From positions 1 to 46,519 of IMG/VR virus record IMGVR_UViG_3300025387_000013: a DNA stretch of 46,519 nt. The stretch is one strand, 5' to 3'. The notes below the pieces were generated by a model. The model did not search any database, had not been told where the DNA came from, and worked only from the letters and a program-made list of their open reading frames with translations. Shown piece after piece: positions 11,126 to 30,560 of this stretch (position 1 is the first letter of the stretch; each line of letters starts with the position of its first letter). Made by a program: the position numbers and the translations under genes. The DNA is from a virus (Duplodnaviria; Heunggongvirae; Uroviricota; Caudoviricetes).

Positions 11126-11920
11126 ATGCTTAATAAGGATTACATAATGCCTTTGTTAGGAGGTAGACTTGGTAACAACTTGTTTATGATAGCTCATGCT
11201 TATGTAAAAGGGCTTGACTATAATAAACAGGTTGTTATCTATAAACCTCATGTGCAATATCATGGAAATGATTATTCTCAGAACATCTTTAAGAAACTAG
11301 AATTTACAGATGTATTAGAAGATAGTAAGAATTTAAATCTTGCAGTTCCTTCTGATGATCAGCCTACATTTTATTATGGATATTATCAAAGTGAAAGATA
11401 CTTTGAGAGATATAGTGAAAATATAAAAAGTTTATTTGGGCCACCTGCTGAATTTATAAATAGAATAAAGCAAGAACTTCCTTTTATATTTGAAGGTGAT
11501 GTAACAGTAATAAATGTTCGTAGAGGAGATTATTTACACTATCCTAACTATCATCCTGTAATTACAACAGAATACATATATGAGGCTCTAAAGCACATAA
11601 AAAATACAAGAGTGTATTTAATAGCTAGTGATGATCTTGATTGGTGTAAAGAGAATATTCATCTACCTAATATGCATTTCTTATTAGGATATACAGCAGA
11701 AGAACAATTGTGGATCTTGTCTATGTGTAATAACTTTGTTATATCTAATAGTTCTTTTAGTTGGTGGGCAGCCTATCTATCTAGATATAGAAACAAAATA
11801 GTTGTAGCTCCTCAAACATGGTTTGGTCCTGATCATTTTAACTCCTGGCAAGATATGTATTGTTATAATTGGAAAATTCTTCCAACTTATTTTGAAAACG
11901 GATTAATAAAACCAAAATGA
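11126..11920 (+). CDS. GT11 family alpha-1,2-fucosyltransferase-like protein
   Basis: GGRLGNNLF, GYYQSERYF, INVRRGDYL, ASDDLDWCKEN, ISNSSFSWWAAYL, VAPQTWF. Confidence 0.9.
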   Translation: MLNKDYIMPLLGGRLGNNLFMIAHAYVKGLDYNKQVVIYKPHVQYHGNDYSQNIFKKLEFTDVLEDSKNLNLAVPSDDQPTFYYGYYQSERYFERYSENIKSLFGPPAEFINRIKQELPFIFEGDVTVINVRRGDYLHYPNYHPVITTEYIYEALKHIKNTRVYLIASDDLDWCKENIHLPNMHFLLGYTAEEQLWILSMCNNFVISNSSFSWWAAYLSRYRNKIVVAPQTWFGPDHFNSWQDMYCYNWKILPTYFENGLIKPK

Positions 11921-12606
11921 TTTCTGTATTAACACTTACGTACAAAAGACACCATCTATTAGAAGAAGCTATTGAATCGTTTTTACAGAACGAAAGCTTC
12001 CATCCTAAAGAAATGGTTATAATCAACGATAACCCTGAAGTAGACTATGTTTATGATCATGAAGATGTAAGAATCATCAATCATAAACAAAGATTTCCTT
12101 CTATAGCAGCTAAAATTGAATGGGGCTATAAACAATGTAAATATGATTATATCTACAGGCTAGATGATGATGATCTTTTAAACAAAACAGCAATATCTAA
12201 TGCTACGTTAGATATATTAGAGAACCCTGGATATGAAATCTATAGAAGCTCAGGTATGTATTTCTTTGTACATAATATCTTTGAAGGTCTTAATAGCAAC
12301 ATTAACAATGGAAATATATATACTAAAGAGTATTTAGATAGGATTAAGTTTCCAGATTTGTCTGGTACAGAAGATGATAATATTACTTATGGACATGGTG
12401 CCAAAATATTTGAATCTAAAAGAAAACCAACAATGCTTTATAGATGGGGAATGAATACGTTACATATTTCTGGAATGGGAATACAACCCAATCATGCAAT
12501 TCTTGCCCAAGCTGATAGAGTGTTAGATAATACTAAAGGGGTAATAACACTTAACCCACATTTTGATAATGATTATTATGAACAAATAAAAAGAGCCTCC
12601 AAATAG
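11917..12606 (+). CDS. GT2 family glycosyltransferase
   Basis: ISVLTLTYKR...AIESFL...VIIND; YIYRLDDDD (DxD). Confidence 0.85.
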   Translation: MISVLTLTYKRHHLLEEAIESFLQNESFHPKEMVIINDNPEVDYVYDHEDVRIINHKQRFPSIAAKIEWGYKQCKYDYIYRLDDDDLLNKTAISNATLDILENPGYEIYRSSGMYFFVHNIFEGLNSNINNGNIYTKEYLDRIKFPDLSGTEDDNITYGHGAKIFESKRKPTMLYRWGMNTLHISGMGIQPNHAILAQADRVLDNTKGVITLNPHFDNDYYEQIKRASK

Positions 12607-12617
12607 GGGGCTCTTTT
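12589..12617. terminator. bidirectional intrinsic terminator at a convergent junction
   Basis: AAAAGAGCCTCC-AAATA-GGGGGCTCTTTT between the + and - blocks. Confidence 0.8.
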
Positions 12618-12618
12618 A

Positions 12619-12759
12619 TTATTTTGACAAACGCTTTTGTTTCATGGGCCACATAGGACTCTTTAACCTTTCCTTTGTATCAGCTTCCTTCATAAAATTA
12701 GGCTTGGCTTTACTAGGAGGTTTTACTTTAGGAGCTGGTCTAGGTTTACCTGATTTCAT
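12619..12759 (-). CDS. small basic Lys/Pro-rich protein (46 aa, not in ORF track)
   Basis: Manual translation: MKSGKPRPAPKVKPPSKAKPNFMKEADTKERLKSPMWPMKQKRLSK*; stop sits just before the terminator. Confidence 0.7.
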   Translation of the reverse strand: MKSGKPRPAPKVKPPSKAKPNFMKEADTKERLKSPMWPMKQKRLSK

Positions 12760-12902
12760 TTTACTTGTTTGTTGTTATCTACAGGAGGTTGAGATCCACC
12801 ACCTGGATTAGAATTAGAGGAAGGTGTATCCACCTTAGTAATAGCTTTATACACTAAGAACGCTATCACTAATATAACACCTAAGAATATAGCTACTCCC
12901 AT
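12756..12902 (-). CDS. small single-TM membrane protein (48 aa, not in ORF track)
   Basis: Manual translation: MGVAIFLGVILVIAFLVYKAITKVDTPSSNSNPGGGSQPPVDNNKQVK*; ATGA overlap with the next gene. Confidence 0.65.
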   Translation of the reverse strand: MGVAIFLGVILVIAFLVYKAITKVDTPSSNSNPGGGSQPPVDNNKQVK

Positions 12903-12919
12903 AGTTTTAAATTTTTTTA

Positions 12920-13222
12920 TTAGCAACCATTTTTACATTTACCCATCTTAGCTCCACCACCCTTACCAGAGTAGTTTTTACCAATTTGTTTACCGTAGCT
13001 ACCTAATTGCATAGATACTGTACCACCAGATTTGTATTTCTTAGCTTTTACTTTACCACCTTTTTTCATCATAGGTTGACCACCGCCCATTGGGGCACCA
13101 CCACCGCCCATTGGAGCTTGTGGAGCAGGAGGAGGAATACCAGGACCAGGAGCTGCTTTTCTTGCAGGAGCAACAGGCTTAGCTGCTGCCATAGGTTTAC
13201 GAACTGTTTTTTTCATTGCCAT
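12920..13222 (-). CDS. small basic Lys/Gly/Pro/Met-rich protein
   Basis: Start placed at MAMKKTVRK (13222); motifs MKKGG and YKSGG. Confidence 0.7.
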   Translation of the reverse strand: MAMKKTVRKPMAAAKPVAPARKAAPGPGIPPPAPQAPMGGGGAPMGGGQPMMKKGGKVKAKKYKSGGTVSMQLGSYGKQIGKNYSGKGGGAKMGKCKNGC

Positions 13223-13241
13223 TGTTATAATTTTTAGATTG

Positions 13242-13397
13242 TTATTTACCTTTACGAGCTTTACGCATTGCTTTGAATGTTTGAGCAAGAGCTTTTCTTT
13301 TAGGAGTGCATGTAGCTTTGGTCATTGGTGTACAAAATCCTTTATGTTTTGGATTTACAGCATCCTGTATCCAATTCTTTTTACTAGCTTTTGCCAT
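13242..13397 (-). CDS. small basic protein (51 aa, not in ORF track)
   Basis: Manual translation: MAKASKKNWIQDAVNPKHKGFCTPMTKATCTPKRKALAQTFKAMRKARKGK*. Confidence 0.75.
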   Translation of the reverse strand: MAKASKKNWIQDAVNPKHKGFCTPMTKATCTPKRKALAQTFKAMRKARKGK

Positions 13398-13399
13398 GA

Positions 13400-13771
13400 T
13401 TATTTCTTTTTAGCTTTGCCACCCATTTTCATGGTTTGACTTTTGCTCATCATAATATCATTCTTTTTCTTAGCCATTTTAACACTTGTTTTGGCCATCT
13501 TCTTACCAGAAGCTATCTTCTTTAAAGATCCACCCATTTCCATTTTACCACCATTCTTTTGCTTCTTAGGAACTACATCCATATTAGCATTATCAACAGC
13601 TTTTAACCATGTAGGTCTATTTGCTTTTTGTAAAGAATCATATCTAGCCCTATCAGTAGAATCTTGAGCAGGGGTAGTTTTTGGCATAGAGTTTATAGCT
13701 TTCATTGCAGCATCTCTATCATACTTTGGTGTATTTAAACCTGATTGTGCTTTCTTAACTATCTTTTTCAT
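13400..13771 (-). CDS. small basic protein with xGG motifs
   Basis: KKAQSG, QKNGG, MEMGG, MKMGG. Confidence 0.7.
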   Translation of the reverse strand: MKKIVKKAQSGLNTPKYDRDAAMKAINSMPKTTPAQDSTDRARYDSLQKANRPTWLKAVDNANMDVVPKKQKNGGKMEMGGSLKKIASGKKMAKTSVKMAKKKNDIMMSKSQTMKMGGKAKKK

Positions 13772-13772
13772 A

Positions 13773-13958
13773 TTATTTACTTTTCATTTTTGTAGCACCC
13801 AATTCTTTGTTTTTAACAAGCTTAGCAGAACCTTTAGCTTTAGCTAATGTTTTGTTTTGCACCTTGGTCCAAGCACCTTTAGGATCTACAGGACCTACAC
13901 GTTTATTAGGAGCTTTAAGTCCTGTGAGACTTCCTCCTGCTTTTTTAACAGTTGCCAT
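13773..13958 (-). CDS. small basic protein
   Basis: MATVKKAGG...GPVDPKGAWTKVQ. Confidence 0.7.
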   Translation of the reverse strand: MATVKKAGGSLTGLKAPNKRVGPVDPKGAWTKVQNKTLAKAKGSAKLVKNKELGATKMKSK

Positions 13959-14257
13959 TATTTTTTAGTTTTAGCTTTTATTTTCTTTTCTTGTTTAATC
14001 ATCTGAGTTGTTGGTTTCTTTCCAGAACCTTTATTCTCACGAATTGAATCCCAAAGACCATGTTGAGATGTGGAACCACCATTCTTCAATCCACTTCCTT
14101 TAAAAGGTCCTTTCTTTTGAATTAATGGTCCATTAGGAACAGGACTGATAGATCCTTTAATAGCAGGAATAGTGTCTCCATTCTGAAGCACTTTCTTTCC
14201 TACATAAGCTGTAGCTTTCTGTGGATTATAAGGACCAGGTTTTTTAATACTAGCCAT
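13958..14257 (-). CDS. small basic protein
   Basis: LKNGG; GLWDSIRENKGSGKKPT; TAATG coupling to neighbours. Confidence 0.7.
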   Translation of the reverse strand: MASIKKPGPYNPQKATAYVGKKVLQNGDTIPAIKGSISPVPNGPLIQKKGPFKGSGLKNGGSTSQHGLWDSIRENKGSGKKPTTQMIKQEKKIKAKTKK

Positions 14258-14559
14258 TACTTACGCTTTTTTGCACCTGCTATTTTATCAGCAAATGTAA
14301 TTTTATCTTTAGGAGGAGCTAATGCTGCAAACTTCTTAAGTTTACCACCCATTTTCATACCTGGTTTCTTTTCAGAAGCAGGTTTATTAGTGATAGCAGG
14401 ATTAGCCTTAGGAGCATATTTTCCTTTACCAGCTTGTCTATCCATAGCATCAGCCCATTTAGTATTCCAATCATCTTGACTCTTTTGAGAAATAGGTCTT
14501 CCTGTTTCAGTTTTAGTCATTCCTTTAGGAACATCTCCACCAGCTTGATATTTTTTCAT
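14257..14559 (-). CDS. small basic protein
   Basis: MKKYQAGG, MKMGG, KFAALAPPKDKITFADKIAGA. Confidence 0.7.
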   Translation of the reverse strand: MKKYQAGGDVPKGMTKTETGRPISQKSQDDWNTKWADAMDRQAGKGKYAPKANPAITNKPASEKKPGMKMGGKLKKFAALAPPKDKITFADKIAGAKKRK

Positions 14560-14563
14560 GATA

Positions 14564-14794
14564 TTATTCTTTAACTTCTGTTATAATTCCTGATTCTACA
14601 CTTCTAGCTAAGGCACCTTCAACAACTTGTGAAGCTGTTTGTGCTATTCCTGTAGCTTCTGCAATAGCACGTAGTGCGTTTAACATTACACCAAATTCAC
14701 CTCCTGTAATAACAATCTGAGCATCTTGCTTCCATGTATATTTCTTGTTAGGATCAAATTTTGGTACTTCTTCAAAGTCAATTACTTCTGACAT
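14564..14794 (-). CDS. hypothetical protein
   Basis: 76-aa ORF with an A-rich leader. Confidence 0.7.
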   Translation of the reverse strand: MSEVIDFEEVPKFDPNKKYTWKQDAQIVITGGEFGVMLNALRAIAEATGIAQTASQVVEGALARSVESGIITEVKE

Positions 14795-14836
14795 ATATAT
14801 TTAAGTTTTGGTTTAATGTGTAAAGATGAAATAAAT

Positions 14837-15133
14837 TTATGAATTCTCCAAATTTAATTCAATTTCAAACACTATTGTTGCAGAGGTTTTGATACTCTTA
14901 CTTAAATCTAGTTTGATTTGAAATATGTTATGTAGCTTTAATATTTCTTCTAATAATAATTCATTGTATTTAGGAAGGCTAGCTGCTAGTCTGAAATGAT
15001 ATGAATTAGGATTCTTTGTAATCTCAAGAATAGAAAGTTCATCTATAGAATCAATAATTCCTTCTAAATGTGCAAAATAAGCTATTTCATTATCCTGCAT
15101 CACTTCTGGAAAGAATTTCTTACTTATATACAT
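14837..15133 (-). CDS. hypothetical protein
   Basis: 98-aa ORF coupled to the upstream gene. Confidence 0.7.
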   Translation of the reverse strand: MYISKKFFPEVMQDNEIAYFAHLEGIIDSIDELSILEITKNPNSYHFRLAASLPKYNELLLEEILKLHNIFQIKLDLSKSIKTSATIVFEIELNLENS

Positions 15134-15546
15134 TATGACATAGTTAAGAAATACAAAGTTTGTGCTGCTTTACCACTAAGATCTTGAGCTATGTTTTCAA
15201 TATCTGCATAGTCCTTACTTCTAGCAAAGAGTTCTAAATCTTCAGCAAATGCTCTAAGGTCTTTTAGCACCTTTGTAGATAATCCTGGAGAATAGTCTAC
15301 AGAAGGTGCCACCTTACTAGCTTTTACTCTTTTTCCTTCATAACCCATTAGTTTCTCAAGGATATCATCTTTAGCTTCTACCACCTCTTTCCACACATTC
15401 AATGCTATATGTTCAGCATGGGACGTTGTTTGCAGATGTGTAAGATGTATCTGTTCATAGAAATAAGACATTCTAGCTCCAATAATATCCATTGTAAGCT
15501 GTTCTCCAGCTCCTAACATTCCTTCAGGAAAGATTGATTTTGACAT
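15133..15546 (-). CDS. ferritin/Dps-like four-helix protein (DUF5856-like)
   Basis: QIHLTHLQTTSHAEHIAL...KDDILEKLMGYEG...DIENIAQDLSG...YFLTMS. Confidence 0.6.
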   Translation of the reverse strand: MSKSIFPEGMLGAGEQLTMDIIGARMSYFYEQIHLTHLQTTSHAEHIALNVWKEVVEAKDDILEKLMGYEGKRVKASKVAPSVDYSPGLSTKVLKDLRAFAEDLELFARSKDYADIENIAQDLSGKAAQTLYFLTMS

Positions 15547-15800: not shown

Positions 15801-16727
15801 TTAATTTGTTATAATTGTTGCCCCTCTTGCCACTAATGTAGCTACATCTAATATTCCTTGACCTGTAGGAGCAGCGTTTGTTCCATAAGACATATCTACA
15901 ACACATGAAGGTCCCCAAAGTGTTGTACCATTAGTACCATCAAGAGAAACCAACATAGCAAGTATATAATTTACAGTGGTTACACTAAGAGCATTTTGAT
16001 AAAAACCTATATATGTAGATATTTCTTTAATTCCACTAGAGAATGTTAGTGTAGTTAAATTAGGATTGTTTTCAATATATATACCATAATCTGAAGCTAT
16101 TCTAATAATACTAGGAAATGATAAAGAAGTAGCAGCTATGTGTTCTATAAAAAAAGATATTTGTACTTCTTGAAGAAGTGGAAAGTTTATATTAGTTAAA
16201 CTATTTCCATTTATGGAAGATTGACTTCCTCCATCCACATGTTGATTAGAAAGAATTCTAACAACATTAGGAAAATTAATACTAACTAAATTATTACCAT
16301 TTATGTAACCTCCATTTAGTGCTGTTAATTCAGGAAATGTAAGTGTTGTAACAGTAGAAGCTAAATCTCCAGTAAATAAAATATTTGCAGAATTATAAAT
16401 GAGAGCAGAATATGCTACATTAGGAATATTAGATGATATATCAGATACTTGAAACAAAGCAATATTCATTGCAGCTGGATTTGATATTACACCATTTGCT
16501 ACATATTTTACAATAGTAGGTTGTGTTATTGATGTAACTGCTGCATCCACCTTTTTTAATGCTAATGTCAAACAATCCCCAGTTTTTATTCCTGTATTGG
16601 GGAGATTTGTTCCAATGTATATTACATCATCAGACTTTGTATAAATACAATAACCTGGACCTCCTGGTGATAATAAATATTTACCATAACAAGGATTTCC
16701 AGGTTGACAAGGAAGAGGTATATTCAT
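15801..16727 (-). CDS. putative virion/appendage protein with fibre-type N-terminal module and LRR/receptor-L-like repeats
   Basis: N-terminal CIYTKSDDVIYIGTNLPNTGIKTGDCLTLALKKVD; repeats LTFPELT, INFPNVV, INFPLLQ, LSFPSII. Confidence 0.6.
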   Translation of the reverse strand: MNIPLPCQPGNPCYGKYLLSPGGPGYCIYTKSDDVIYIGTNLPNTGIKTGDCLTLALKKVDAAVTSITQPTIVKYVANGVISNPAAMNIALFQVSDISSNIPNVAYSALIYNSANILFTGDLASTVTTLTFPELTALNGGYINGNNLVSINFPNVVRILSNQHVDGGSQSSINGNSLTNINFPLLQEVQISFFIEHIAATSLSFPSIIRIASDYGIYIENNPNLTTLTFSSGIKEISTYIGFYQNALSVTTVNYILAMLVSLDGTNGTTLWGPSCVVDMSYGTNAAPTGQGILDVATLVARGATIITN

Positions 16728-16981
16728 TACACTATTGTTGTTGTATCAGTAGTAGTCTCTGTTGTTGTGTCTGTTGTAGAAGTGCTAGTAGTTGGAGCCT
16801 CTGTTGTAGTCTCTGTAGTACTAGTTGTAGTGGTCAATTCCTCTGTTGTTGTTTCAGTGGTTGTACTAGTGGTAGTAGGTTCTGCAGTGGTTGTGTCAGT
16901 GGTTGTGCTAGTAGTAGTTTCACCACTAACAATAGCTCTAATCCTAGCTTGTGTTTCTCTAGCTTTATTTATATCAAACAT
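16727..16981 (-). CDS. small mucin-like Thr-rich protein
   Basis: A 20-aa head followed by about 60 aa of T/S/E/D repeats (TTTSTTTDTTTAEPTTTSTT...). Confidence 0.75.
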   Translation of the reverse strand: MFDINKARETQARIRAIVSGETTTSTTTDTTTAEPTTTSTTTETTTEELTTTTSTTETTTEAPTTSTSTTDTTTETTTDTTTIV

Positions 16982-17454: not shown

Positions 17455-18474
17455 TTAATAGTTGAGGTTGTATTTATTTTTTAATTCTATAAGTTTTGTA
17501 ACATAATAATGAGTTCCCTTTTTCTTAGAATCTTCATTATTTAATACATTATTTATTTGACTGTCTTTGAAAGGATCTTTACCTGAATGATATAGTCCTT
17601 TATAGAAAGCCTGATAACCAGGCATGTCATTCGATGTAATTCCAGCATTATGAAAGAGTCCAAGTCTATTTACCTTCTCCATATCATCTGAGGCCCATGA
17701 GAAATCCATTTCAGGAATGTTCTTAGTCTCAAGATCTCTTAACCAAAGGTTCCATAACACAGCCCACATATCTGCACACCAGCTTTGAAATCCTTTATTT
17801 TCATTTGCAAAGAATTGACTATTAATATGTTGTAAATATTTACGTATTAATATACAATCGTTCATCACCTTGTTCCAGAAATTAGCATCTACATTCTTTA
17901 AAAAGTATTGTGCTCCTCCTGAGTTATTGTTGTTAGCTTCTGCAATCTCTCTAGTTATACCTATCAAGCTTGTTATCTCAGCTAATACATCTCTAGTTTT
18001 GTATTCTTCCAGTTTCTCTGGGAGAACATCATGTATTTTACTATCAAAATATGAAGCGTTTATATAGCTATTTGTATCTGAAAGATAACAAACATCATCA
18101 TCTATATAATCATCTACGTTAAACCTATCTGTAAATAGAATATCACAATCACAATAGAATACAGCTTTACTAATCATTTCAGGATGGTCTTTGAACCATC
18201 TCATTAAGACATATGGACGTAGAACAGGAATATATGTTCCAAGTTGTTGACTAACATCTCCATCATCTTTGTAATAAGCAAACTGTGCTTCTGGATATAG
18301 ATCTTCTACTTGTTTCCATTTCTCATTTTTCTCTCTGAAGCTTGGTGTATACACTAAGACAATAGCCTTGTCTGAATGTCCAATCTCCTTTAAGCTTTCT
18401 AACCAGGCATGTACTTGCCATGAGAAATACGCATCATCTGGCTGAGCGACTACAAATCTTAATTCCTTACCCAT
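17455..18474 (-). CDS. GT-A glycosyltransferase resembling peptidyl-Ser/Hyp O-glycosyltransferases (SGT1/HPAT-like)
   Basis: YFSWQV...LESL; YIPVLRPYVLMRWF; FYCDCDILF (DxD); SWCADMWAVLW. Start placed at MGKELRF (18474). Confidence 0.6.
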   Translation of the reverse strand: MGKELRFVVAQPDDAYFSWQVHAWLESLKEIGHSDKAIVLVYTPSFREKNEKWKQVEDLYPEAQFAYYKDDGDVSQQLGTYIPVLRPYVLMRWFKDHPEMISKAVFYCDCDILFTDRFNVDDYIDDDVCYLSDTNSYINASYFDSKIHDVLPEKLEEYKTRDVLAEITSLIGITREIAEANNNNSGGAQYFLKNVDANFWNKVMNDCILIRKYLQHINSQFFANENKGFQSWCADMWAVLWNLWLRDLETKNIPEMDFSWASDDMEKVNRLGLFHNAGITSNDMPGYQAFYKGLYHSGKDPFKDSQINNVLNNEDSKKKGTHYYVTKLIELKNKYNLNY

Positions 18475-18475: not shown

Positions 18476-19069
18476 TTATTTAGTTGTTGGTTTACATCTT
18501 TCATCTCTTCTTAGTATATCAGTTGCATTAAACTTCCAAGTTTTTCCAGCTATGATTGCTCTAACTGTATACAAACTAACTCCTAATATTTCAGAGACTT
18601 CTTTTGCACCTTTTCCTGAGTTATATAATTCTTTAATAATAGTAACTTTTTTATCTGTGAGTGTTGCTCTACCATTTCCTTCACCAGCTCTACTAGGTTG
18701 TAGTCCTAATTTATAAGCATGTAATTGATTTTCTGAATTAGTAACCCACTCAAGATTTACAATACTATTATCAGTTTTTATACCATTAATGTGATTTATT
18801 TGAGTACATCCTTCAGGTTTTACTAAGAAAGCACTAGCTACAAGTTTATGAACTAATCTAGTGTGAGTTCCATTTTTACGAAGCCTAACTTCAGGATATC
18901 CCTTTTTATTAAGCATTTGTTTCATTTCTTGTCCTCTAGTTAATCGAAGTCCATTTCTACCTTGTTTAAGTCTATCTATTCCTCTAATTTTACCAAGACT
19001 ACTTACCTGATATCCTTCAAAGTTAGGAACATCTCTCCATTCTTCACAGATAAACTTAAGATCCTTCAT
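18476..19069 (-). CDS. NUMOD4-HNH homing endonuclease
   Basis: EEWRDVPNFEGYQVSSLGKIR (NUMOD4); VHKLVASAF...INHINGIKTDNSIVNLEWVTNSENQLHA; C-terminal HTH-like tail. Confidence 0.9.
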   Translation of the reverse strand: MKDLKFICEEWRDVPNFEGYQVSSLGKIRGIDRLKQGRNGLRLTRGQEMKQMLNKKGYPEVRLRKNGTHTRLVHKLVASAFLVKPEGCTQINHINGIKTDNSIVNLEWVTNSENQLHAYKLGLQPSRAGEGNGRATLTDKKVTIIKELYNSGKGAKEVSEILGVSLYTVRAIIAGKTWKFNATDILRRDERCKPTTK

Positions 19070-21680: not shown

Positions 21681-21761
21681 ATTAGTTGGTGTAGCTATAA
21701 CACAAAATCCCCAATGAAGGGGAATTTAAATGTTATCTAGTTGAAAAATAATAGGTGATAG

Positions 21762-21793
21762 CAAAACTATGTAAAACAAATGATATAACCAAA
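21762..21793 (-). promoter_or_regulatory. Bacteroidota housekeeping-sigma promoter driving the leftward lysis/appendage block
   Basis: Minus strand TTTG(21793-90)-N20-TAGTTTTG(21769-62), exact consensus. Confidence 0.7.
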
Positions 21794-21825
21794 TATTTTT
21801 TTCTTATGGATTGGTATAATTTTCT

Positions 21826-21833
21826 TATTTTTG
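21826..21833 (+). promoter_or_regulatory. possible -7 box for the glycosyltransferase island
   Basis: TATTTTTG 17 nt before ATG 21851; no well-spaced -33 element. Confidence 0.35.
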
Positions 21834-21850
21834 TTAAAAATAACAATTAC

Positions 21851-24055
21851 ATGAAACCAATATGTCTTGATCTAAAAGAGCTTATAGATTTAGAAAATAT
21901 AAACTCTTATATAGAAGACTTATATAATATCTACAGACAAAAGATATATGTATTGTCAAGTCAGCCAGAACATTTCAAAAACAACCCCCACGTTCTAAAA
22001 AGCTATAAAAAGGCATCAATGAATATTGCCTGGTTTGAAAACCATACAGAAATATATACATATGATGTAAAACCAAAACTACTAGTTATAGTTCCTCACA
22101 TGTCCACTGGTGGTTGTCCTCAAGTGACATTAAATAAAGTGGAGCTTCTCCAATCTTCCTTTAATATACAAGTGGTAGAATATGCATTCTATGGGCCAGC
22201 CTATGTGGTTCAGAGAAATAAGATGATTGCTCTAGTGGGAGAAGATAAGTTTCATTCTCTAGGAGAAAATAAGTTTGCAGATCTCATTAAAATATGTGAT
22301 AGGTTCAAGCCACAGGTTATATCTATAGAAGAGTTTCCAGAGATGTTTATGAATACTGAATGTGCTAACTATCTATATAATACAGAGAGAAATTGGAAAA
22401 TTATAGAAACTACACATGATAGTTCATTCAATCCAAGAAACAAATTCTACCTACCTGATCAGTTTGTGTTTGTTAGTGCTTATAGCCTGTTCAAATATAT
22501 TGATCTAAATGTTCCTATGGAGATTATAGAATACCCTGTAGATAAGAAAGAACGTAATAAACTAGCAAGACAACAACAGTTTGGTTTAGATCCTGAGTAT
22601 AAGCATATTGTGATAGTTGGGTTATTTACAGCTAGGAAGAACCAAGGATATGCTTTTGAAATGGCCAGACAATTAGAGAATTATAAAGTAAAGTTTCATT
22701 TCTTAGGTAACCAGGCAGGTAATTTTGAAGACTATTGGAAACCATTGATGGCCAACAAACCTGACAACTGTATCATCTGGGGAGAAAGAAGTGATGTATC
22801 TGAGTTCTTACAAGCTTGTGATATGTTCCTATTCCCATCCAAAGGTGATCGTGGAAACAAGGAACTCAATCCAATTGCTATTAAGGAAGCTCTAGAATAT
22901 GATATGGTTAAGATGATATATCCTCTAGATGTATATTGTAATAAGTATGATGATTATGAGGATGTAGTTTATTTAACAGGAGATGTTAATACTGATAGTA
23001 CCAACTTAATTAGTTATCTAAACCTTACAGCATCTTTAAAGATGAATGTAGATGAGGAAGTGATTGTTATAGGAACCTATCCTAATTTAAAAAGACGTGT
23101 AGAACTTACAAAAGAATGTATAAGATCATTAAAACCATTAGGTAGAAAAATAATTTTAGTTAGTCACTATCCTGTAGATCAAGAGATTCAAAGAATGGTG
23201 GATTATTATATCTATGATAAACATAATCCAATGACCTTTCATTCTTATTATACATTGTTTTTTAATTATGCATCAGACTATGATGTAAATATTAATATTA
23301 ACCAATTACATGATGGTAATCAATCGTTGGCTGTTTTAACTAATCTATTTAATGGGTTTAAACATGCCAAAGCACATGGATTTAAAAGTTTATTCTATGT
23401 TACATTTGATATTATAATTGATCCTAGGGATATACCAGCTATTAATGAATCATTTAATACATTACGTAATGGTAAGAAGGCACATTTAGCTATATTCAAA
23501 ACAGAATTTGAATATGGTATACAAACCAATGGTATGACTTTCAATGTAGACTATTTCTTAGATAGGTTCGATGATGTAAGAGATGTAGAAACTTATAATA
23601 GTATTTGCAAAAATATTGGTTCGCAAAACTTCTTAGAAGATTATCTTGCTAAAAAGTTAGAAAAGCTTAATAAGAATGAGTTATATATTAGACCAATGAA
23701 AAAAAATGGAGAAGCTGAAACATTTCTTGAATATACAGGTGTAGGACTTTCTTCTCATAGTGAGTATTATTCTATTTTACCAGTGATGGAAAAAGATAAT
23801 GTATTCATGTTCTATTTCTATACATATAATATAGATGATAGAATTGTTAAAGTGAGAATAGAAAATACATTATTTGAATTTAATATATCTGAAACTAAAG
23901 AATATAAATATGAGTTTGCTTACACTGGTAAACCTATAACTATAACTATTGAGTTTTATGATGATGATAATCTATACAAAAAAGAATCACATATAATAAA
24001 TGAAGATACACTTGATAAATATATAAACACTGGAAAATTCTCATGGAAAAAATAA
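21851..24055 (+). CDS. bifunctional glycosyltransferase: GT4-like (GT-B) domain fused to a GT-A-like domain
   Basis: VPHMSTGGCP; IVGLFTARKNQ; ACDMFLFPS...ELNPIAIKEAL; C-terminal VIGTYP...IILVSHYP...YYIYDKHNP...FYVTFDII. Start placed at ATG 21851; track uses GTG 21755. Confidence 0.8.
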   Translation: MKPICLDLKELIDLENINSYIEDLYNIYRQKIYVLSSQPEHFKNNPHVLKSYKKASMNIAWFENHTEIYTYDVKPKLLVIVPHMSTGGCPQVTLNKVELLQSSFNIQVVEYAFYGPAYVVQRNKMIALVGEDKFHSLGENKFADLIKICDRFKPQVISIEEFPEMFMNTECANYLYNTERNWKIIETTHDSSFNPRNKFYLPDQFVFVSAYSLFKYIDLNVPMEIIEYPVDKKERNKLARQQQFGLDPEYKHIVIVGLFTARKNQGYAFEMARQLENYKVKFHFLGNQAGNFEDYWKPLMANKPDNCIIWGERSDVSEFLQACDMFLFPSKGDRGNKELNPIAIKEALEYDMVKMIYPLDVYCNKYDDYEDVVYLTGDVNTDSTNLISYLNLTASLKMNVDEEVIVIGTYPNLKRRVELTKECIRSLKPLGRKIILVSHYPVDQEIQRMVDYYIYDKHNPMTFHSYYTLFFNYASDYDVNININQLHDGNQSLAVLTNLFNGFKHAKAHGFKSLFYVTFDIIIDPRDIPAINESFNTLRNGKKAHLAIFKTEFEYGIQTNGMTFNVDYFLDRFDDVRDVETYNSICKNIGSQNFLEDYLAKKLEKLNKNELYIRPMKKNGEAETFLEYTGVGLSSHSEYYSILPVMEKDNVFMFYFYTYNIDDRIVKVRIENTLFEFNISETKEYKYEFAYTGKPITITIEFYDDDNLYKKESHIINEDTLDKYINTGKFSWKK

Positions 24056-25074
24056 ATATGAATATAACACACGTAGCAACAGGACTTATTAACATACCAC
24101 CAAATGGTTGGGGAGCTATTGAAAGACTTATATGGGAATACAAAAAGCAACTTGATCTGCTAGGACATAATGTAGAAATTAAATACATGAATGAACTAGA
24201 AAAACATTCTAACACAATTATCCACACACATATATTTAATCAAGCATTACATTGTAAAGAGCTTGGAATTCCTTATATATTCTCTTTACACGATCATCAT
24301 GCTGAATATTTAGGAAAGGATAGTAGACTGTTTAAAGAAAATCTAGAAGCAATAAAAGGTAGTGTAATTTCTTTTACACATGCTGAGTATCTAATAGACT
24401 TTTTCAGTGAGACAGATAAATTATTCTATCTATCTCATGGAACAGATACATCTTTCTTTACTCCTAACACAGATGTAATACCACATAGACTACTTATGAT
24501 AGCTAACAATGGCCTAGCTGGAGATCCTACAATAGATAGAAAAGGTTTTAGGCAAGGAATAGAAGCTGCTAAAGCTCTAGACTTGCCAATCACAATTGCT
24601 GGTCATCAAGACAATCATAAATTCTTTGACTATCATAGAGATCTTTTAGAATATGATGGTCTTACAATAGAACTATACAATCCAACAGATGAACAAATAA
24701 GAAATCTCTATCAGTCTCATACAATATTTGTACATCCTTCATTCATAGAAGCTGGCCATCCTAACTTAACACTTATGGAAGCAGCAAGTTCTTGTCTTCC
24801 TATTGTAGGAACATACAGAGGATCTAAGCATGTATATGGTATGTGGGTTACACCTACAACATCTACACAAGATATTATATATGGAATAGAACAGACATTA
24901 ATTACATATGATCATAGAAGAGAAGAGATGTTCTCTGTAAGAGAAAGTCTTGATTGGAAACATGTATGTGTAAAGCTTGATAAATATTATCAGAATGTTG
25001 TAAAGGTGAATGATCTGTATACAACAGATGTAACAAAAGAAAAATATACATCACTTTATTTAAACCTTGTATAG
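24043..25074 (+). CDS. GT4-like glycosyltransferase
   Basis: IPPNGWGAIE; DRKG; FVHPSFIEAGHPNLTLMEAASSCLPIVG (Ex7E-type). Confidence 0.85.
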   Translation: MEKINMNITHVATGLINIPPNGWGAIERLIWEYKKQLDLLGHNVEIKYMNELEKHSNTIIHTHIFNQALHCKELGIPYIFSLHDHHAEYLGKDSRLFKENLEAIKGSVISFTHAEYLIDFFSETDKLFYLSHGTDTSFFTPNTDVIPHRLLMIANNGLAGDPTIDRKGFRQGIEAAKALDLPITIAGHQDNHKFFDYHRDLLEYDGLTIELYNPTDEQIRNLYQSHTIFVHPSFIEAGHPNLTLMEAASSCLPIVGTYRGSKHVYGMWVTPTTSTQDIIYGIEQTLITYDHRREEMFSVRESLDWKHVCVKLDKYYQNVVKVNDLYTTDVTKEKYTSLYLNLV

Positions 25075-26160
25075 ATGCTTAAGTATAACTTATACATGAT
25101 TGGTAACATATATTTTGAAATCCTAGAAGCCTGGGAGAACAAAGAATATTATGTTAAAATTGTAGAACAAAAAGGTGATGAAAGATATTTTATTTATGGT
25201 GAAACCTTAAGGCCAGGGATGTGGCTTAGAAGTGATAGATCCTATCTAAGTGACTATTTTGTAGAGATTTGGGATGGTGATCAGTTAAGAGAAGAGATAG
25301 ATGTAATTAAACACATCACTAGTCTGAAGGTTTTTATAACCCTTGAATCTAAGTCTATAGGAGATAACTTAGCTTGGATACCTTATTGTTTAGAGTTTAA
25401 AAAACAATACAAATGTGATGTTGTAGTTTCTACATTTCATAACACTCTATTTAAGAGTGTATATCCAGAGCTATCATTTGTTGAACCAGGATGTGTTGTA
25501 CATGGTATTATGGCTATGTTTCATGTTGGTTGGGATTGGAATCCAAACAATGAACCTCAGGAACCAAATCTTATTCCTTTACAAAAAGCTGCTACTAACA
25601 TTCTTAATTTAGAATTCAGAGAGATAAAACCTAGAATAGCATTTCTTCCTAAGAAAAGACCTATGAAGGATAAGTATATTGCTATATCAACAAGATCTAC
25701 ATCTCAAGCAAAACATTGGTATTATTGGCAAGATCTAATAAATATTCTTAAAGAGAAAGAATATAAGGTGGTGGAAGTATCTTTAGAAGGATCTGACTTT
25801 CAAGGACTTGAACCAGTGGAGGATAGAAGCCCTGAGAATGTAATGAATCTAATTCATTATTCAGAATTCTTAATAGGACTTGGTAGTGGTTCTTCTTGGT
25901 TAGCTTGGGCTCTTGGTAAACGTGTTGTAATGATTTCTAATTTCTCAAAGGATGGTCATGAGTTTACAACCAATTGCATAAGAATCAAAGACACATCTAT
26001 ATGTCATGGATGTTGGAACAATCCAATGTTCAGATTTAATAAGGGAGATTGGAACTGGTGCCCTGAACATGAGCATACAGATAGACAATTTGAATGTCAT
26101 AAGCTTATATCAGCAGAAAATGTAATGAAACAGATAATGAAAAAGGGGCTATTAAACTAG
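25075..26160 (+). CDS. TibC/AAH-like autotransporter O-heptosyltransferase-family protein glycosyltransferase
   Basis: SKSIGDNLAW; STSQAKHW; FLIGLGSGSSWLAWALGKRVVMISNFS; CHGCWN...WCP...FEC (Cx2Cx15Cx11C iron finger, 26002-26097). Confidence 0.85.
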   Translation: MLKYNLYMIGNIYFEILEAWENKEYYVKIVEQKGDERYFIYGETLRPGMWLRSDRSYLSDYFVEIWDGDQLREEIDVIKHITSLKVFITLESKSIGDNLAWIPYCLEFKKQYKCDVVVSTFHNTLFKSVYPELSFVEPGCVVHGIMAMFHVGWDWNPNNEPQEPNLIPLQKAATNILNLEFREIKPRIAFLPKKRPMKDKYIAISTRSTSQAKHWYYWQDLINILKEKEYKVVEVSLEGSDFQGLEPVEDRSPENVMNLIHYSEFLIGLGSGSSWLAWALGKRVVMISNFSKDGHEFTTNCIRIKDTSICHGCWNNPMFRFNKGDWNWCPEHEHTDRQFECHKLISAENVMKQIMKKGLLN

Positions 26161-26531: not shown

Positions 26532-26562
26532 CAAAAATAACAAATTAAATTAAACTAACAAT
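26532..26562 (-). promoter_or_regulatory. possible Bacteroidota-type promoter for 26172..26516
   Basis: Minus strand ATTG-N19-TATTTTTG ending 15 nt before the ATG. Confidence 0.45.
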
Positions 26563-26846
26563 TAAATTGTTGTAGTTGTACTAGTGGTTGTTGTAGGAGC
26601 AAATGTTAAATTAAGTGTTTTTGCTGCCCAATTCCAAGCTTGATCATTTGTATTCCAATCAGTTTCATAATCAGGACTTACCATTGATAAGTTTCCTTGA
26701 CTTAACATTACAGTATTTACATCAAAAAGAGCATAATAAAATGATGCTGAATTAATAAGATTGTCATTAATACAATAAAGTTGTAATTGTGTAGCTTGAA
26801 CATTTTGTCCATTTGTCCAAATGTTGATAGGTGTGATTTCTCTCAT
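26562..26846 (-). CDS. tail-fibre-associated small protein with Thr-rich C-terminal tail
   Basis: ITPINIWTNG...SASFYYAL...WNTNDQAWNWAAKTLNLT followed by APTTTTSTTTTI. Confidence 0.65.
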   Translation of the reverse strand: MREITPINIWTNGQNVQATQLQLYCINDNLINSASFYYALFDVNTVMLSQGNLSMVSPDYETDWNTNDQAWNWAAKTLNLTFAPTTTTSTTTTI

Positions 26847-26864
26847 TTGTTTATGTTTTAAATT

Positions 26865-29800
26865 TTAATATCCTTCTATAATTAAAAATCCTGTAGATGT
26901 AGCTCCTGTAACAGTCATTGCAGTAGTAGTTAAAGAAGTAACTAAAGCCGCAGCTAAACCATTGGTTGTTAATATAACAGGGGTTTGAGTAAATGCAATA
27001 GGGAAAGTATAAGCCGCAGTACCTACAAGAGCAGCACAATACACTATTACTTTTTTATAAGACGTTCCTTGTTCAGGTTGAGAATAGTTTGCAGTTCCAC
27101 TTGTTGAACCGTTTACTAATGTTTGGGTTGCGGAGTTTTTTAATACAGTTACTTTTGCACTACCTACTACCTGTAGCTTATCTGTACCATTGTCTGTTGT
27201 AGAGCCTAAGATAATATTTCCACCAACTGATATTCTCATTCTTTCAGCATAAGCAGCCCCAGTAGCAAAAACTAAATTTCCAGTACTATTACCTTGTGTG
27301 CCTATTCCAAAATCATTTGCAAGACCAGCAGTAACAGCAGTTGCAGAACCGATAAGACCAATAGAAGATGATGTGATGAAGTCTATCCAAGGCTTACCTG
27401 CACTACTTGAAATTTGTATAACTCTGCCCGCTGATTCACCACCGATAAATCTTGAAAAACCACCCGTAACTCTTAACCCATAATTTCCAACGCCCGTAAA
27501 CGCACCATTTGTAAAAGTTGGACTTATATCCAATCCTACAAGTACATCAGAGTTAGCAGCAGCTACTAATGTAGGAGTAGCTATTATCCCCTGTGCTAAA
27601 GCAGAAGCAGCAGTTACACTTCCTGTTAGAGTTGTTTGTCCGTTATGTCTGCTTGTTCCTGTTACGTCAAGTTTATAGCCTGCGTCTGTTGTAGAATTTA
27701 TTGCTAAGTTTCCTGTTGCTCCAAAAAACTTTGATAAAACGGTAGCACTTGTATTAGCAAAACCAATATTATTATTATTCCCTTCAAGAACTATTGCTGA
27801 TGTTCCACCATTGTATGCACTTTTAATTTTTGTATTATTAGAGGTTGCGTCCCATGTAAAACTTCCAACATTTGAAGATACCCCAATTTGATAACCTCTT
27901 TCTTGATTTCCACCAGAAGCGTAATTTATATACGCCATTTCTGCTCTATTTCCCCCATTCCCAATATAAAGTTGACCGCCTATTAATGCATCTCCTGATG
28001 TTCTTAAAGCATAAGTACTTACTCCTGTAAAAGCACCATTTGTAAACGTAGGGTTTATATCTAAACCTACTAATACATCATTATTAGCTGCTGCTACTAA
28101 TGTAGTGTTATTATATTCACCTCTTGCTATAGCTCCTGATGCTGTCATAGTTCCTGTAACTGTTAAAGCAGGGTTACCTGTTGAAGTGGCATTGAACTTT
28201 CCACTCCCAGTTACCTGTAGCTTATCTATACCATTGTCTGTTGGTAAACTGGTACCAGCTCCTATATAAACATTTCCTGTGCTAAATGATACAAATCTCT
28301 GATTGCCTAATCCATCGGCTAATATAACTAAACTTGAACTACTAGCAGATAATCCGCTTGAACTACTTGTAAAACCAATAATAGTGTTGTAATTACCAGT
28401 TGATATTGGATTTATACTAGCCCCAGTGTAACTTGAACCTACAAAAGTATTAAATTGTCCAGTTGTAATATTACCGCCAACATAAGCACCTATAAGTGTA
28501 TTTTGACTTCCAGTTGTAACATTATTACCAGCTGTACTACCTACTGCAACATTAAAATTACCTGTTGTTGCCGTCTTTAATGTATTAACCCCTATTGCAA
28601 CACATTCTTGTGCTGTTGAACCACTTGTACCATATAATGATGCATAGCCTAATGCTGTGTTTGTTTTACCAGTTACATAATACATTGATTGTGAGCCAAC
28701 AGCAGTATTTTGTGTGGCAGTAGTAGCAGATTTTAAAGCATCTCCACCAATTGCAACATTATATGCTGCATTTACTAAAAGTCCAGCTCTTATTCCTACT
28801 GCAACATTATCTGAATATTGAGTATTTAAAGCATTTAATGCTTGATAACCTATTGCCGTTGCCCAAATATTACTTTGTGCAGTTGCAGCTAATGCACCAT
28901 TACCTAATGCTATGCTATAAATATCTCCCCCTGCCCCTAGCCCAACCCTAACTGTATTAATATTTGCATCAGAACCAACAATTCTTAATCCATAATTTGT
29001 TACGCCCGTAAAAGCTCCATTAGTAAACGTAGGATTAATATCCAATCCTACTAATACATCATTATTTGCAGCAGCAGTTAATGTAGGAGTAAGATATGTT
29101 CCTCTAGCAATGGCAGAAGCAGCTGTAACACTTGGGCTAACTACAACACCTGTTGTTAAGTCTTGTATAGAACTATTACCAATTGTACTAGCTGATGTAA
29201 ATTTAACTACAGTGTTAGTAGTTCCTGAAACAGATACAGATGTTCCACTTGTTGCAGAGGTTCCACTAGAACCAGATGTAGCTGAAGATCCAGAACTACC
29301 AGAAGATGCTGAAGTTCCACTAGATGCACTAGAACCACTTGTTCCAGAAGTTCCACTAGTTGAAGATGACCCACTAGTTCCAGAACTTGCACTTGTTCCA
29401 CTTGATCCTGAGGAACCAGATGAACCAGAACTAGCTGAGGTTCCTGAGCTACCACTTGTAGATGATGATCCACTTGTTCCTGAAGAGGCACTACTACCAC
29501 TAGACCCTGATGTGCTAGAAGAACCAGATGTACCACTAGTTGAGGAAGATCCAGAACTTCCACTTGTTCCACTGGAACCTGTAGCTCCACTAGAACCTGT
29601 AGCTCCACTAGAACCAGATGTTCCACTGGAACCAGATGACCCACTACTAGCAGATGTTCCACTGGAACCTGTAGCTCCACTAGAACCTGTAGCTCCACTA
29701 GAACCAGATGTTCCACTGGAACCAGATGACCCACTACTAGCAGATGTTCCACTGGAACCAGATGACCCACTACTAGCAGATGTTCCACTAGATCCTGTAG

Positions 29801-30560
29801 CTCCACTAGAACCTGTAGCTCCTGATGTACCAGAAGTTCCTGAAGCTCCTGCAATGTTAAGATTCCATGAATTATATGTATGTGTTCCTTTAACAGTTGT
29901 AACATACACTGTCATAAATCCAGTGATTTTTGAATAGCTCCCTACAACTCCTATAAAATAATCATTGACACTATTACTAACTGATACGTATTGACCAAAT
30001 GTATATGCTAAATCTAAATCAGTGGTTAAACTAATTGGACTACCATATACTAATGTTGCTAGATTTATACTAGTAGTAGAAGTTCCTACATATCTATCTC
30101 CACTTAATCCTGATGTTCCACTAGAACCAGAAGTGGCACTAGATCCTGAAGATCCGCTAGTTCCACTTGTACCATTGACACCAGATGTACCATCCACACC
30201 TGAAGAACCGCTTGTACCATCTACACCAGAAGATCCACTAGATCCTGATGTTCCAGAGCTTGCACTGGTTCCACTACTAGCACTAGTTCCACTAGATCCA
30301 CTAGTAGCACTAGACCCACTAGTTCCACTAGAACCAGCATCTCCTGATGTACCAGAGGTACCATAACTAAGACCACTAGAGCCAGATGTACCTGCTGTAC
30401 CAGCCACAGCATTGTGTACAGCAATGTTTATTTTTTGTAATGCTACTTCTAATGTATCATTATTGTTGACATCTATATATACCAGATTTTGCCCTTCGTA
30501 AAACACGCAGGCAGAATCTAATAATACTGGACAAGTTTTTGCAGAACAAGTAACATTCAT
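26865..30560 (-). CDS. long tail fibre / adhesin-like virion protein
   Basis: N-terminal [17 protein letters not shown] module; two Gly/Ser/Thr repeat blocks; NxAxG beta-roll repeats; three copies of a 45-aa module. Start placed at MNVTCS (30560); track uses 30602. Confidence 0.8.
27471..29117 (-). repeat. three dispersed copies of a ~45-aa fibre module
   Basis: (S/G)A(I/L)A(R/Q)G...TL(T/V)AAAN(N/S)DVLVGLDI(N/S)[12 protein letters not shown](G/A)LR at 28980-29117, 28002-28136 and 27471-27605. Confidence 0.9.
29236..30404 (-). repeat. Gly/Ser/Thr low-complexity repeat blocks with exact DNA tandem duplications
   Basis: [13 protein letters not shown] repeats at about 29236-29850 and 30100-30404. 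Exact 90-nt unit at 29566-29655 and 29656-29745; 36-nt subunit at 29620, 29710 and 29746. Confidence 0.9.

Follow-up and report, generated by a model that had tools for sequence, protein, structure and literature searches.

Gene content of the window

This work concerns the glycosyltransferase (GT) genes of a crAss-like phage and the Ser/Thr-rich proteins encoded among them. The stretch of DNA analysed, called the window here, is 46,519 nucleotides long and corresponds to bases 1-46519 of the 116,114-bp IMG/VR record IMGVR_UViG_3300025387_000013 (CheckV completeness 100%), which has the handle G000 in the genome comparisons below. The crAss-type TerL, portal and major head genes of this genome were found beyond the window. 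The GC content of the window is ~31%, and a search of the region for near-identical DNA among GenBank phages returned no match. The left part carries replication-type genes on the + strand (ribonucleotide reductase, RecA, PhoH), with a GT11 and a GT2 gene at its end. From 12.9 kb on, the minus strand holds late or structural genes, in a run broken by a plus-strand island at 21755-26160. A giant open reading frame (ORF) at 35678-46519 runs on past the window to ~49.7 kb.

The window encodes six GTs, a tail fibre with Ser/Thr repeats, an 84-residue Thr-rich protein and a Thr-tailed protein of 94 residues. A hydrophobicity check found no membrane segment in any of the six GTs, pointing to soluble enzymes. 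An initial annotation of this DNA had placed all of these genes correctly and had read them as one virion O-glycosylation system. Comparison with related genomes showed, however, that the six GTs are not co-inherited: they split into a module with a TibC-like enzyme (module B), a module with a GT-A enzyme (module A), and sporadic GT11 and GT2 genes. Judging from the comparisons with other phages, we think it probable that the phage GTs O-glycosylate the phage's own virion proteins, and that they would do so as two separate modules.

A TibC-family enzyme is encoded beside a collagen-like tail fibre

Module B and the adjoining fibre comprise the following features.

21806-24055, + strand: multidomain GT, 749 amino acids (from the ATG used by gene callers; the ORF opens at GTG 21755)
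24043-25074, + strand: GT4-type (GT-B) glycosyltransferase, 343 amino acids (Pfam PF13692/PF00534)
25075-26160, + strand: TibC/Aah-family (BAHT) putative protein O-glycosyltransferase, 361 amino acids (phmmer, TIGR04414)
26865-30602, - strand: tail fibre, 1245 amino acids (translation; PHROG tail-fibre families; likely start Met15, at 30560)
30093-30407, - strand: collagen-like block 1 of the fibre, residues 66-170 (G-X-Y repeats)
29163-29849, - strand: collagen-like block 2 of the fibre, residues 252-480 (G-X-Y repeats)

The 361-residue enzyme matched TibC (PDB 4RAP) with a phmmer E-value of 1.2e-40 over residues 49-351, and it passed the NCBIfam equivalog model TIGR04414 with 219.6 bits against a cut-off of 200, over residues 25-355 of 361; its Pfam match, to GT9, was weak. 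TibC has a catalytic Asp, D110 (the D110A variant is inactive), and an iron-finger with the cysteines C339, C342, C358 and C370 (PMC4358343). The Asp is kept in the phage enzyme, where 'sIGDnlaW' aligned to 'tLGDllgW' of TibC (the D110A crystal variant reads 'LGA' there), and all four iron-finger Cys align with a spacing, Cx2Cx15Cx11C, identical to that of TibC. These results establish the enzyme, which had been called TibC-like, as a true member of the family.

Pfam GT4 matches were obtained for both GT4-type genes of the module. For the 343-residue protein the match was weak yet above the cut-off, in agreement with its assignment as a GT4 enzyme. The 749-residue protein had been described as a GT4+GT-A fusion. 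Its AlphaFold2 model (predicted local distance difference test score, pLDDT, of 85) consists of a GT4 (GT-B) domain at residues 88-408, an alpha/beta domain at ~418-630 and a beta-sandwich tail. The GT4 domain matched HepE with a Z-score of 24.6 and a root-mean-square deviation of 3.3 over 295 residues, and its structural matches were GT4 enzymes of the HepE/PimA/WaaG type. The predicted alpha/beta pattern of the ~418-630 domain fits a GT-A-like fold, which it probably has. This C-terminal domain found nothing in a PDB sequence search, Pfam or NCBIfam, and the fold searches with the whole model were dominated by the GT4 domain, so that the GT4 half of the proposed fusion stands and the GT-A half is unconfirmed. 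The best AFDB cluster for the whole protein was a GT4-TibC fusion (E 1e-28). A look-alike Atlas cluster for the C-terminal domain contained 17% GT25, a lead at most. Most homologues of the large GT4 protein are ~900 residues long and have an extra conserved C-terminal domain with CEGDC and TPAHYGCYEAF motifs that the 749-residue protein lacks.

Relatives of the TibC-like protein were found at 36 IMG/VR loci, and the order large GT4 protein (GT766)-GT4-TibC was kept in at least 30 viral loci, nearly all of the 36. In other lineages the commonest form was a GT4-TibC fusion in a single ORF of ~700-1460 amino acids, with GT4 as the N-terminal half; by sequence, the separate GT4 (343 residues) and TibC (361 residues) proteins of the window look like a split form of this fusion. 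The cassettes of relatives also hold canonical GT9, GT2 and FkbM-type methyltransferase genes. Since cassette content differs between close relatives, diversification of the glycan is suggested. Some cassettes start with a canonical GT9 heptosyltransferase (for example locus L004, 3204-4130; Pfam E 1.3e-17), and a small methyltransferase and a GT2 occur in them as well. FkbM methyltransferases ride in TibC cassettes of other lineages (L033 and the Microcystis phage Mel-JY01), and sugar methylation may belong to the system.

The fibre has an N-terminal anchor of ~50 residues, two collagen-like blocks, NxxAxG repeats that resemble a beta-roll (YadA-head-like), and distal domains. Its repeats matched the Pfam Collagen family (PF01391) with an E-value of 4.5e-26. 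The two blocks contain 80 G-X-Y triplets, with Ala or Ser now and then at the Gly position, and 91% of the X and Y positions are Ser or Thr. The ~300 residues of GTSG-type repeats reported in the initial annotation are present (~330 by our count), although their collagen G-X-Y nature had been missed. Over their 334 residues the blocks contain no Pro, no Glu, at most one Lys and four Asp, and the known collagen stabilisers, Pro or hydroxyproline and charged pairs, are missing. Collagens of viruses and bacteria are unusually rich in triplets that contain Thr (PMC11923368). As cited in that paper, Ac-(Gly-Pro-Thr)10 stays a random coil until all of its Thr residues carry galactose, and the BclA and Riftia cuticle collagens are glycosylated. 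Because the window blocks lack every known stabiliser, we infer that sugars would be needed for the helix.

TibC and Ser/Thr collagen are gained and lost together

The distribution of module B was followed in a clade set of 16 genomes, made up of 15 near-complete genomes taken from the long records among 487 TerL relatives plus the genome studied here. TibC and the large GT4 protein were present in 10 of the 16, this genome counted, and absent from the other six; the GT4 domain of the large protein was likewise found in 10/10 TibC-positive and 0/6 TibC-negative relatives. Ser/Thr collagen followed the same division, with 10/10 TibC-positive against 0/6 TibC-negative genomes. The ten TibC-positive genomes had 80-867 G-X-Y triplets with 72-93% Ser/Thr at X and Y genome-wide, and two ORFs with mixed triplet types in these genomes had 45-50%. 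The six TibC-negative genomes had either no collagen or 8-28 triplets composed of Q/I/V/P or A/G/K. Three records that looked discordant, with collagen and no TibC, proved to be contigs cut exactly at the cassette locus. The fibres of G006 (TibC-positive) and G015 (TibC-negative) share a head of 83.5% identity, and Ser/Thr triplets occur only in G006, amid Gln/Ile/Val ones.

All crAss-like relatives with enough downstream sequence showed a Ser/Thr G-X-Y ORF within 10 kb of TibC, and several clade genomes carried extra Ser/Thr-collagen ORFs 40-70 kb from the cassette. At distant TibC loci (33-39% identical, in another gene neighbourhood) no collagen ORF was found within 10 kb; three of these five records nevertheless had 56-176 matches to the collagen pattern elsewhere, with zero matches to a reversed-pattern control. 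In one different lineage collagen lay ~17 kb from TibC, and in a 735-kb phage it lay hundreds of kb away. As the pair also occurs far apart in the genome, the association is not mere linkage.

A test in the reverse direction used 43 unrelated viral records whose sole selection criterion was an exact 8x G-[ST]-[ST] DNA pattern, with 26 records picked by a Thr10 pattern as control. TibC was found in 19/43 of the collagen-picked records and in 1/26 of the controls (Fisher p 2.6e-4), and the lone TibC-positive control belongs to the clade examined here. The 19 TibC proteins recovered in this way were 33-49% identical, and they came from genomes of 26-548 kb. The complete collagen-picked records without TibC, five in all, had a single pattern match each, and 3/5 of them were proviruses. 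Among 50,697 GenBank phages TibC was present in four records, two of them duplicates, leaving three distinct genomes. Two of these three contain the collagen pattern: Mel-JY01 and the 735-kb metagenomic phage, with 1419 matches. Within the clade, the TibC-like cassette is thus gained or lost together with fibres that carry Ser/Thr repeats, and the two are paired in unrelated lineages as well, which bears out that half of the co-occurrence proposed in the initial annotation; the other half, between the HPAT-like GT and GTSG fibres, failed (see below).

In Mel-JY01 (PP395634.1) the Ser/Thr collagen ORF occupies 2..3052 of the + strand, is open at the start of the record and is unannotated. It lies two genes upstream of a 1226-residue GT4-TibC fusion encoded at 4750-8430, and GenBank annotates two coding sequences on the opposite strand over it. 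The fusion itself carries the GenBank label 'methyltransferase FkbM'. A 'cytidylyltransferase-like' gene near TibC in this phage was considered as HldE, and it was set aside as not callable because it barely reached the Pfam cut-off (21.1 vs 21 bits).

A GT-A enzyme of the phrog_4417 family follows poly-Thr tracts

Module A in the window comprises one enzyme and two Thr-rich proteins, both of which were as originally described by their translations.

17455-18474, - strand: GT-A glycosyltransferase of phrog_4417 ('unknown function'), 339 amino acids (PHROG E 1.6e-51; AlphaFold2)
16727-16981, - strand: Thr-rich protein, 84 amino acids, with a 20-residue head followed by ~64 residues of Thr-rich tracts (TTTSTTTDTTTAEP...) (translation)
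26562-26846, - strand: Thr-tailed protein, 94 amino acids, just downstream of the fibre and ending in APTTTTSTTTTI (translation)

The 339-residue enzyme had no Pfam match at E<=0.01, including to HPAT (PF23452), and no NCBIfam match. Its AlphaFold2 model (pLDDT 97) has a GT-A fold, and the best Swiss-Prot fold matches were Arabidopsis SGT1 (E 8e-11, template modelling (TM) score 0.64) followed by eight HPAT/RDN proteins, HPAT1-3 among them. The SGT1/HPAT likeness first proposed for this protein thus holds for the fold, with no sequence-family match behind it; in one look-alike Atlas cluster, PF23452 was found in just 10% of the proteins. The protein has no hydrophobic segment (maximum Kyte-Doolittle 19-residue mean 0.74). 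An exhaustive search grouped its relatives into 764 clusters at 50% identity. A DxD motif (D109, D111) is invariant in an alignment of 66 homologues, and longer relatives fuse the GT-A domain to GT2, GT6, Gly_transf_sug or methyltransferase domains.

The ORF of this gene extends to 349 residues, and its Met11 is the likely start of the enzyme. Sequence comparison of the 349-residue ORF with solved structures gave only spurious matches to designed TIM proteins, and a sub-threshold Pfam match to Cas_TM1802 was dismissed as noise. A homing-type HNH/NUMOD4 endonuclease gene (18476-19069, - strand) abuts the start of the GT-A gene and is overlapped by the 349-residue ORF. It is sporadic among the relatives examined, with one close copy (81%, L012) and weak HNH matches in G006, G017 and G022.

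The GT-A gene was present in 15/16 clade genomes, including 5/6 without TibC, which sets it apart from module B. Each of these 15 genomes encodes structural-module proteins with non-collagen poly-Thr tracts. The sole clade genome without the gene, G011 (114,968 bp), was also the sole one without poly-Thr tracts. Among the tract-bearing proteins of the present genome, both beyond the window, are a 390-residue structural-module protein (72216-73385) with a C-terminal Thr/Ser tail of 21 residues and a 1890-residue virion protein (60000-65672) with long (TS)n and TTTPAP tracts; the G011 orthologue of the 390-residue protein ends before the Thr tail. On the strength of these tracts the two proteins are further candidate acceptors of module A. 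Within the window, the gene of the 84-residue Thr protein lies two genes downstream of the GT-A gene, and its stop overlaps the start of the next gene. This protein was found in no other of the 16 genomes, with similar small poly-Thr ORFs in relatives, and the 94-residue protein has homologues in G013 and G010.

The GT-A family occurred in 77 of the 50,697 GenBank phages (0.15%), mostly phages of Firmicutes. The gene is placed immediately behind the major tail gene, ahead of the chaperone and tape measure genes, in Enterococcus phiFL1A, Clostridium phiCTP1 and Staphylococcus RQ1, and the capsid-like, portal-like and major tail proteins of these phages end in poly-Thr. The gene just upstream of the GT-A gene in Lactobacillus SAC12B ends in PTTV(K/A)P repeats, and two nearby upstream genes in Chryseobacterium MA9V-3 have long poly-Thr tracts. 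In RQ1 (L467) the major tail gene (8229-8931) ends in TTTTTTTP and an overlapping ORF encodes seven T7 blocks. To judge by the sequence, frameshifting may extend the tail tube protein into a Thr-rich form here, with the GT-A gene a short way downstream. A reverse test from the substrate side was weakly positive, with the family present in 3/26 Thr10-picked records (12%) against the 77 in all GenBank phages.

The initial annotation had cast the HPAT-like enzyme as a second priming transferase on the GTSG fibre. That role does not fit its presence in 5/6 relatives without such fibres. Because the enzyme follows poly-Thr instead of GTSG fibres, the data indicate two independent enzyme-substrate modules and not two primers on one fibre.

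Proposed mechanism and competing explanations

In the mechanism that we propose, soluble cytoplasmic GTs would O-glycosylate virion proteins before or during assembly, drawing on nucleotide sugars of the host. For module B, the TibC/Aah enzyme (25075-26160) would set the first sugar on Ser/Thr of the Pro-free collagen blocks of the fibre, and the neighbouring GT4 enzymes (21806-25074) would extend the glycan. A dense coat of sugars probably stabilises the triple helix or makes it possible, in the manner of galactosyl-Thr in (Gly-Pro-Thr)n peptides and Riftia collagen. If the helix needs the sugar, the joint inheritance of enzyme and repeat would be explained. For module A, the GT-A enzyme (17455-18474) would glycosylate poly-Thr tracts and tails, with the 84-residue Thr protein and the Thr tail of the 94-residue protein as putative acceptors in the window and several capsid- and tail-module proteins beyond it. 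GT11 and GT2 (11126-12606) would be extras of particular strains, with a possible part in diversifying one of the glycans. The assumption that donors come from the host is in line with the initial annotation, which had noted no nucleotide-sugar synthesis genes in the window: no nucleotide-sugar epimerase/dehydratase or NTP-transferase domains were found in the whole 116-kb genome, where the SIS/GmhA and HldE families were not specifically searched. As for purpose, the collagen triplets suggest a sugar-dependent stabilisation of the triple helix, which differs from the glycan shield or host mimicry first suggested.

We tentatively extend this proposal to a possible stronger form, in which glycosylation would be a structural requirement. 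The Pro-free, uncharged G-S/T-S/T chains would fold only after a ring-shaped TibC-type enzyme and GT4 extenders have acted, so that phages from crAss-like ones to those of 700 kb would own a sugar-stabilised collagen with a 'hydroxylase substitute'. A second and orthogonal code would operate in the same particle: its signal would be the poly-Thr tail and its reader the plant-like GT-A enzyme, and Firmicutes siphoviruses would share it.

Several observations weigh against virion glycosylation by the two modules. On a tree of TerL, portal and major capsid protein the cassette trait changes state only 2-3 times, and only one independent pair lies on well-supported branches of the clade tree; with so few independent changes, the 10/10 vs 0/6 table loses its significance when relatedness is taken into account. 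Fibre and cassette adjoin in this clade, and only the 50-residue anchor of the fibre is conserved, so that the two could swap together as one recombination unit. Outside the clade, a 636-kb phage (LR756504) has TibC without the collagen pattern, and roughly half of the collagen-picked records showed no TibC. The characterised acceptors of TibC are beta-helical autotransporters, not collagen (PMC4358343). No heptose or other nucleotide-sugar genes were found in the 116-kb genome, with the same limit on GmhA and HldE as above. The known BAHT donor is ADP-heptose, and a supply of it may be missing in many Bacteroidota. For module A, loss was seen in a single genome, G011, the plant-like fold comes without a Pfam HPAT sequence match, and only 12% of the Thr10 records have the enzyme, a low yield that would be expected of poly-Thr linkers with more than one use or more than one enzyme.

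Some of these points would also fit a different account, in which the GTs remodel envelope glycans or surface proteins of the host during infection (lipopolysaccharide (LPS) core, capsule, S-layer, adhesins) and the link to collagen is indirect. Such remodelling could block superinfection or stop progeny from sticking to debris, and the link would reflect shared adaptation to the host surface or the swapping of neighbouring genes. It draws on the GT4, GT9, GT2 and GT11 families being typical of LPS and capsule synthesis, on the canonical GT9 heptosyltransferase in cassettes of relatives, on the adjoining positions of cassette and fibre in the clade, fibres being modular, and on the few independent transitions inside it. 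We nonetheless consider it unlikely. The TibC-like enzyme passes the equivalog model of a family that, where characterised, modifies proteins, and its pairing with the repeat holds when the two are far apart and in unrelated lineages from a cyanophage to 735-kb phages, with no enrichment of TibC in the Thr10 control set. Seroconversion would be of little use to a strictly lytic crAss-like phage, and in siphoviruses the module A gene is placed within the tail module, with Thr-tailed tail proteins beside it.

Somewhat less likely still, in our view, is that the fibre is glycosylated elsewhere than on its collagen blocks, the TibC-like enzyme being directed at the NxxAxG beta-roll/beta-helix-like or other folded domains and the blocks serving as unmodified flexible spacers. 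The acceptors known for BAHT enzymes are indeed Ser residues on beta-helix repeats (PMC4358343), and YadA-head-like NxxAxG repeats follow the collagen blocks in the window fibre. It is the Ser/Thr G-X-Y sequence itself, however, that co-varies with TibC, as seen with the DNA pattern, and no beta-helix domain does so; the non-collagen parts of the fibre are not conserved among TibC-positive genomes. Moreover, there is no known way for Pro-free, uncharged G-S-S repeats to form a stable unmodified helix (PMC11923368).

Glycosylation of phage DNA bases for evasion of restriction, as in the glucosylation of hydroxymethylcytosine by T4, is a role often given to phage GTs (PMC12619734) and GT-B enzymes do glucosylate T-even DNA, yet it is very improbable here. 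The fold match of the GT4 domain to T4 alpha-glucosyltransferase (Z 21.3) reflects generic GT-B similarity and ranked below many GT4 enzymes that act on sugars or lipids, and enzymes of the TibC family, like those of SGT1/HPAT type, transfer sugars to proteins. The cassette is missing from close relatives whose replication genes are the same, and this role predicts no link to collagen or poly-Thr where a strong one was found.

Relation to known glycosylation systems

The closest system to module B by sequence is that of TibC-TibA and Aah-AIDA-I of E. coli (BAHT, TIGR04414, PDB 4RAP/4RB4, PMC4358343), of which the phage enzyme is a family member and, like them, cytoplasmic. A further likeness lies in the proposed substrate, a long and repetitive surface protein from a neighbouring gene that would be hyper-O-glycosylated at many Ser (or Thr) positions. 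The differences are that the enzyme is phage-encoded and that the proposed acceptor is a collagen-like G-X-Y fibre instead of a beta-helical autotransporter; no autotransporter gene was seen among the window ORFs, and no heptose genes were found in the phage. Phage TibC is usually fused or coupled to GT4 and often to FkbM methyltransferases, which implies an extended and possibly methylated glycan and not single heptoses. TibC forms a ring-shaped dodecamer through a beta-hairpin thumb, and the thumb region of the phage enzyme aligns with gaps.

For the proposed acceptor, the nearest parallels are the glycosylated collagens of Bacillus anthracis (BclA), Clostridioides difficile (BclA3-SgtA, PMC7157674) and, as cited in PMC11923368, Riftia with the galactosylated (Gly-Pro-Thr)10 peptide, in which G-X-Thr repeats are O-glycosylated on Thr. 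SgtA, too, is a dedicated transferase with its gene next to that of the collagen (PMC7157674), and in the proposal for the phage fibre the sugar would likewise take the place of hydroxyproline as helix stabiliser. The phage repeats differ in being Ser-dominated and without any proline, the enzyme is of the TibC and not the SgtA type, and the carrier is a virus particle and not a spore or an animal cuticle.

Mycobacteriophages offer the parallel for module A. According to the accounts in PMC12619734 and PMC12582341 of Freeman et al. 2023, phage GTs there modify the phage's own structural proteins, and the glycans are carried by extensions at the C-termini of capsid and tail-tube subunits. The poly-Thr tails encoded next to the module A gene in Firmicutes phages agree with this arrangement. 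The phages studied here have hosts of Bacteroidota type or are phages of Firmicutes, and the module A family is unannotated and has a fold like plant GT95/GT96. The plant enzymes SGT1 (GT96) and HPAT (GT95) are its best fold matches (TM 0.55-0.64) and are also GT-A enzymes with a DxD motif. They start O-glycans on hydroxy-amino acids of extended repetitive peptides of the polyproline-II type. The phage enzyme differs in lacking a Pfam HPAT match and a type II (Golgi) membrane anchor, and its likely acceptor is Thr, not hydroxyproline or Ser. Convergence or a very ancient origin may account for the resemblance. In giant viruses, virus-encoded and host-independent machinery glycosylates virion surface proteins, viral collagen-like ones included (chlorovirus capsid glycans; mimivirus fibril and collagen; PMC9614988, PMC9546862). 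Those are eukaryotic viruses with other enzyme families, and mimivirus modifies hydroxylysine, whereas here BAHT-type enzymes of bacterial viruses would act on Ser/Thr.

To our knowledge, glycosylation of virion proteins in phages is established only for some mycobacteriophages. Virus-encoded virion glycosylation as such is already known (chloroviruses and mimivirus, PMC9614988; mycobacteriophages, Freeman 2023 as cited in PMC12619734), as are glycosylated bacterial collagens (BclA; BclA3-SgtA, PMC7157674). Our literature search found no paper that ties the TibC family or the phrog_4417 GT-A family to phage particles, or TibC to collagen. The present results suggest that virion glycosylation is widespread in environmental and gut-type phages, by two enzyme families new to phage particles in the literature searched. 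They also offer a candidate enzyme for the folding of Thr/Ser-rich, hydroxyproline-free viral and bacterial collagens, a question raised in PMC11923368. With a genomic rule that pairs the TibC domain with G-[ST]-[ST] repeats and phrog_4417 with poly-Thr tails, 'hypothetical' phage genes in the thousands would be better annotated. If confirmed, sugar coats of fibres and tails would affect host recognition, particle stability, stickiness to mucus or biofilm, and antibody recognition of therapeutic phages. Cultured phages with each module exist, and direct testing is possible.

Sporadic glycosyltransferases and other genes

Three further features of the window touch the subjects above.

11126-11920, + strand: GT11-family (fucosyltransferase-type) GT, 264 amino acids (Pfam PF01531 E 1.4e-30; phrog_2644)
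11917-12606, + strand: GT2-family GT, 229 amino acids (Pfam PF00535 E 1.3e-11)
15801-16727, - strand: fibre-like protein, 308 amino acids, which shares the N-terminal anchor of the collagen fibres and has no collagen block

The family assignments of GT11 and GT2 were upheld by these Pfam matches, that of GT11 with 107 bits against a cut-off of 23.9. GT11 occurred in 2/16 clade genomes (G000 and G020 only), and homologues of GT2 (~60%) occurred in G018, G020 and the TibC-less G012. With this sporadic distribution, the role given to them in the initial annotation, as capping and elongating enzymes of the same glycan, is unsupported.

The 308-residue fibre-like protein showed N-terminal similarity to 'second fibres' of relatives. 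The N-terminal module of ~50 residues (C..PG.PCY ... NLP..G...GD.L) heads several different fibre proteins, including those at 15801-16727 and 26865-30602 and those of relatives G006-G018. As the sole fibre part common to TibC-positive and TibC-negative genomes, it suggests a common docking site with exchangeable distal parts. Beyond the window, the gene at 89532-90665 of the same genome encodes a glucosaminidase domain fused to FkbM/FtsJ-type methyltransferase domains.

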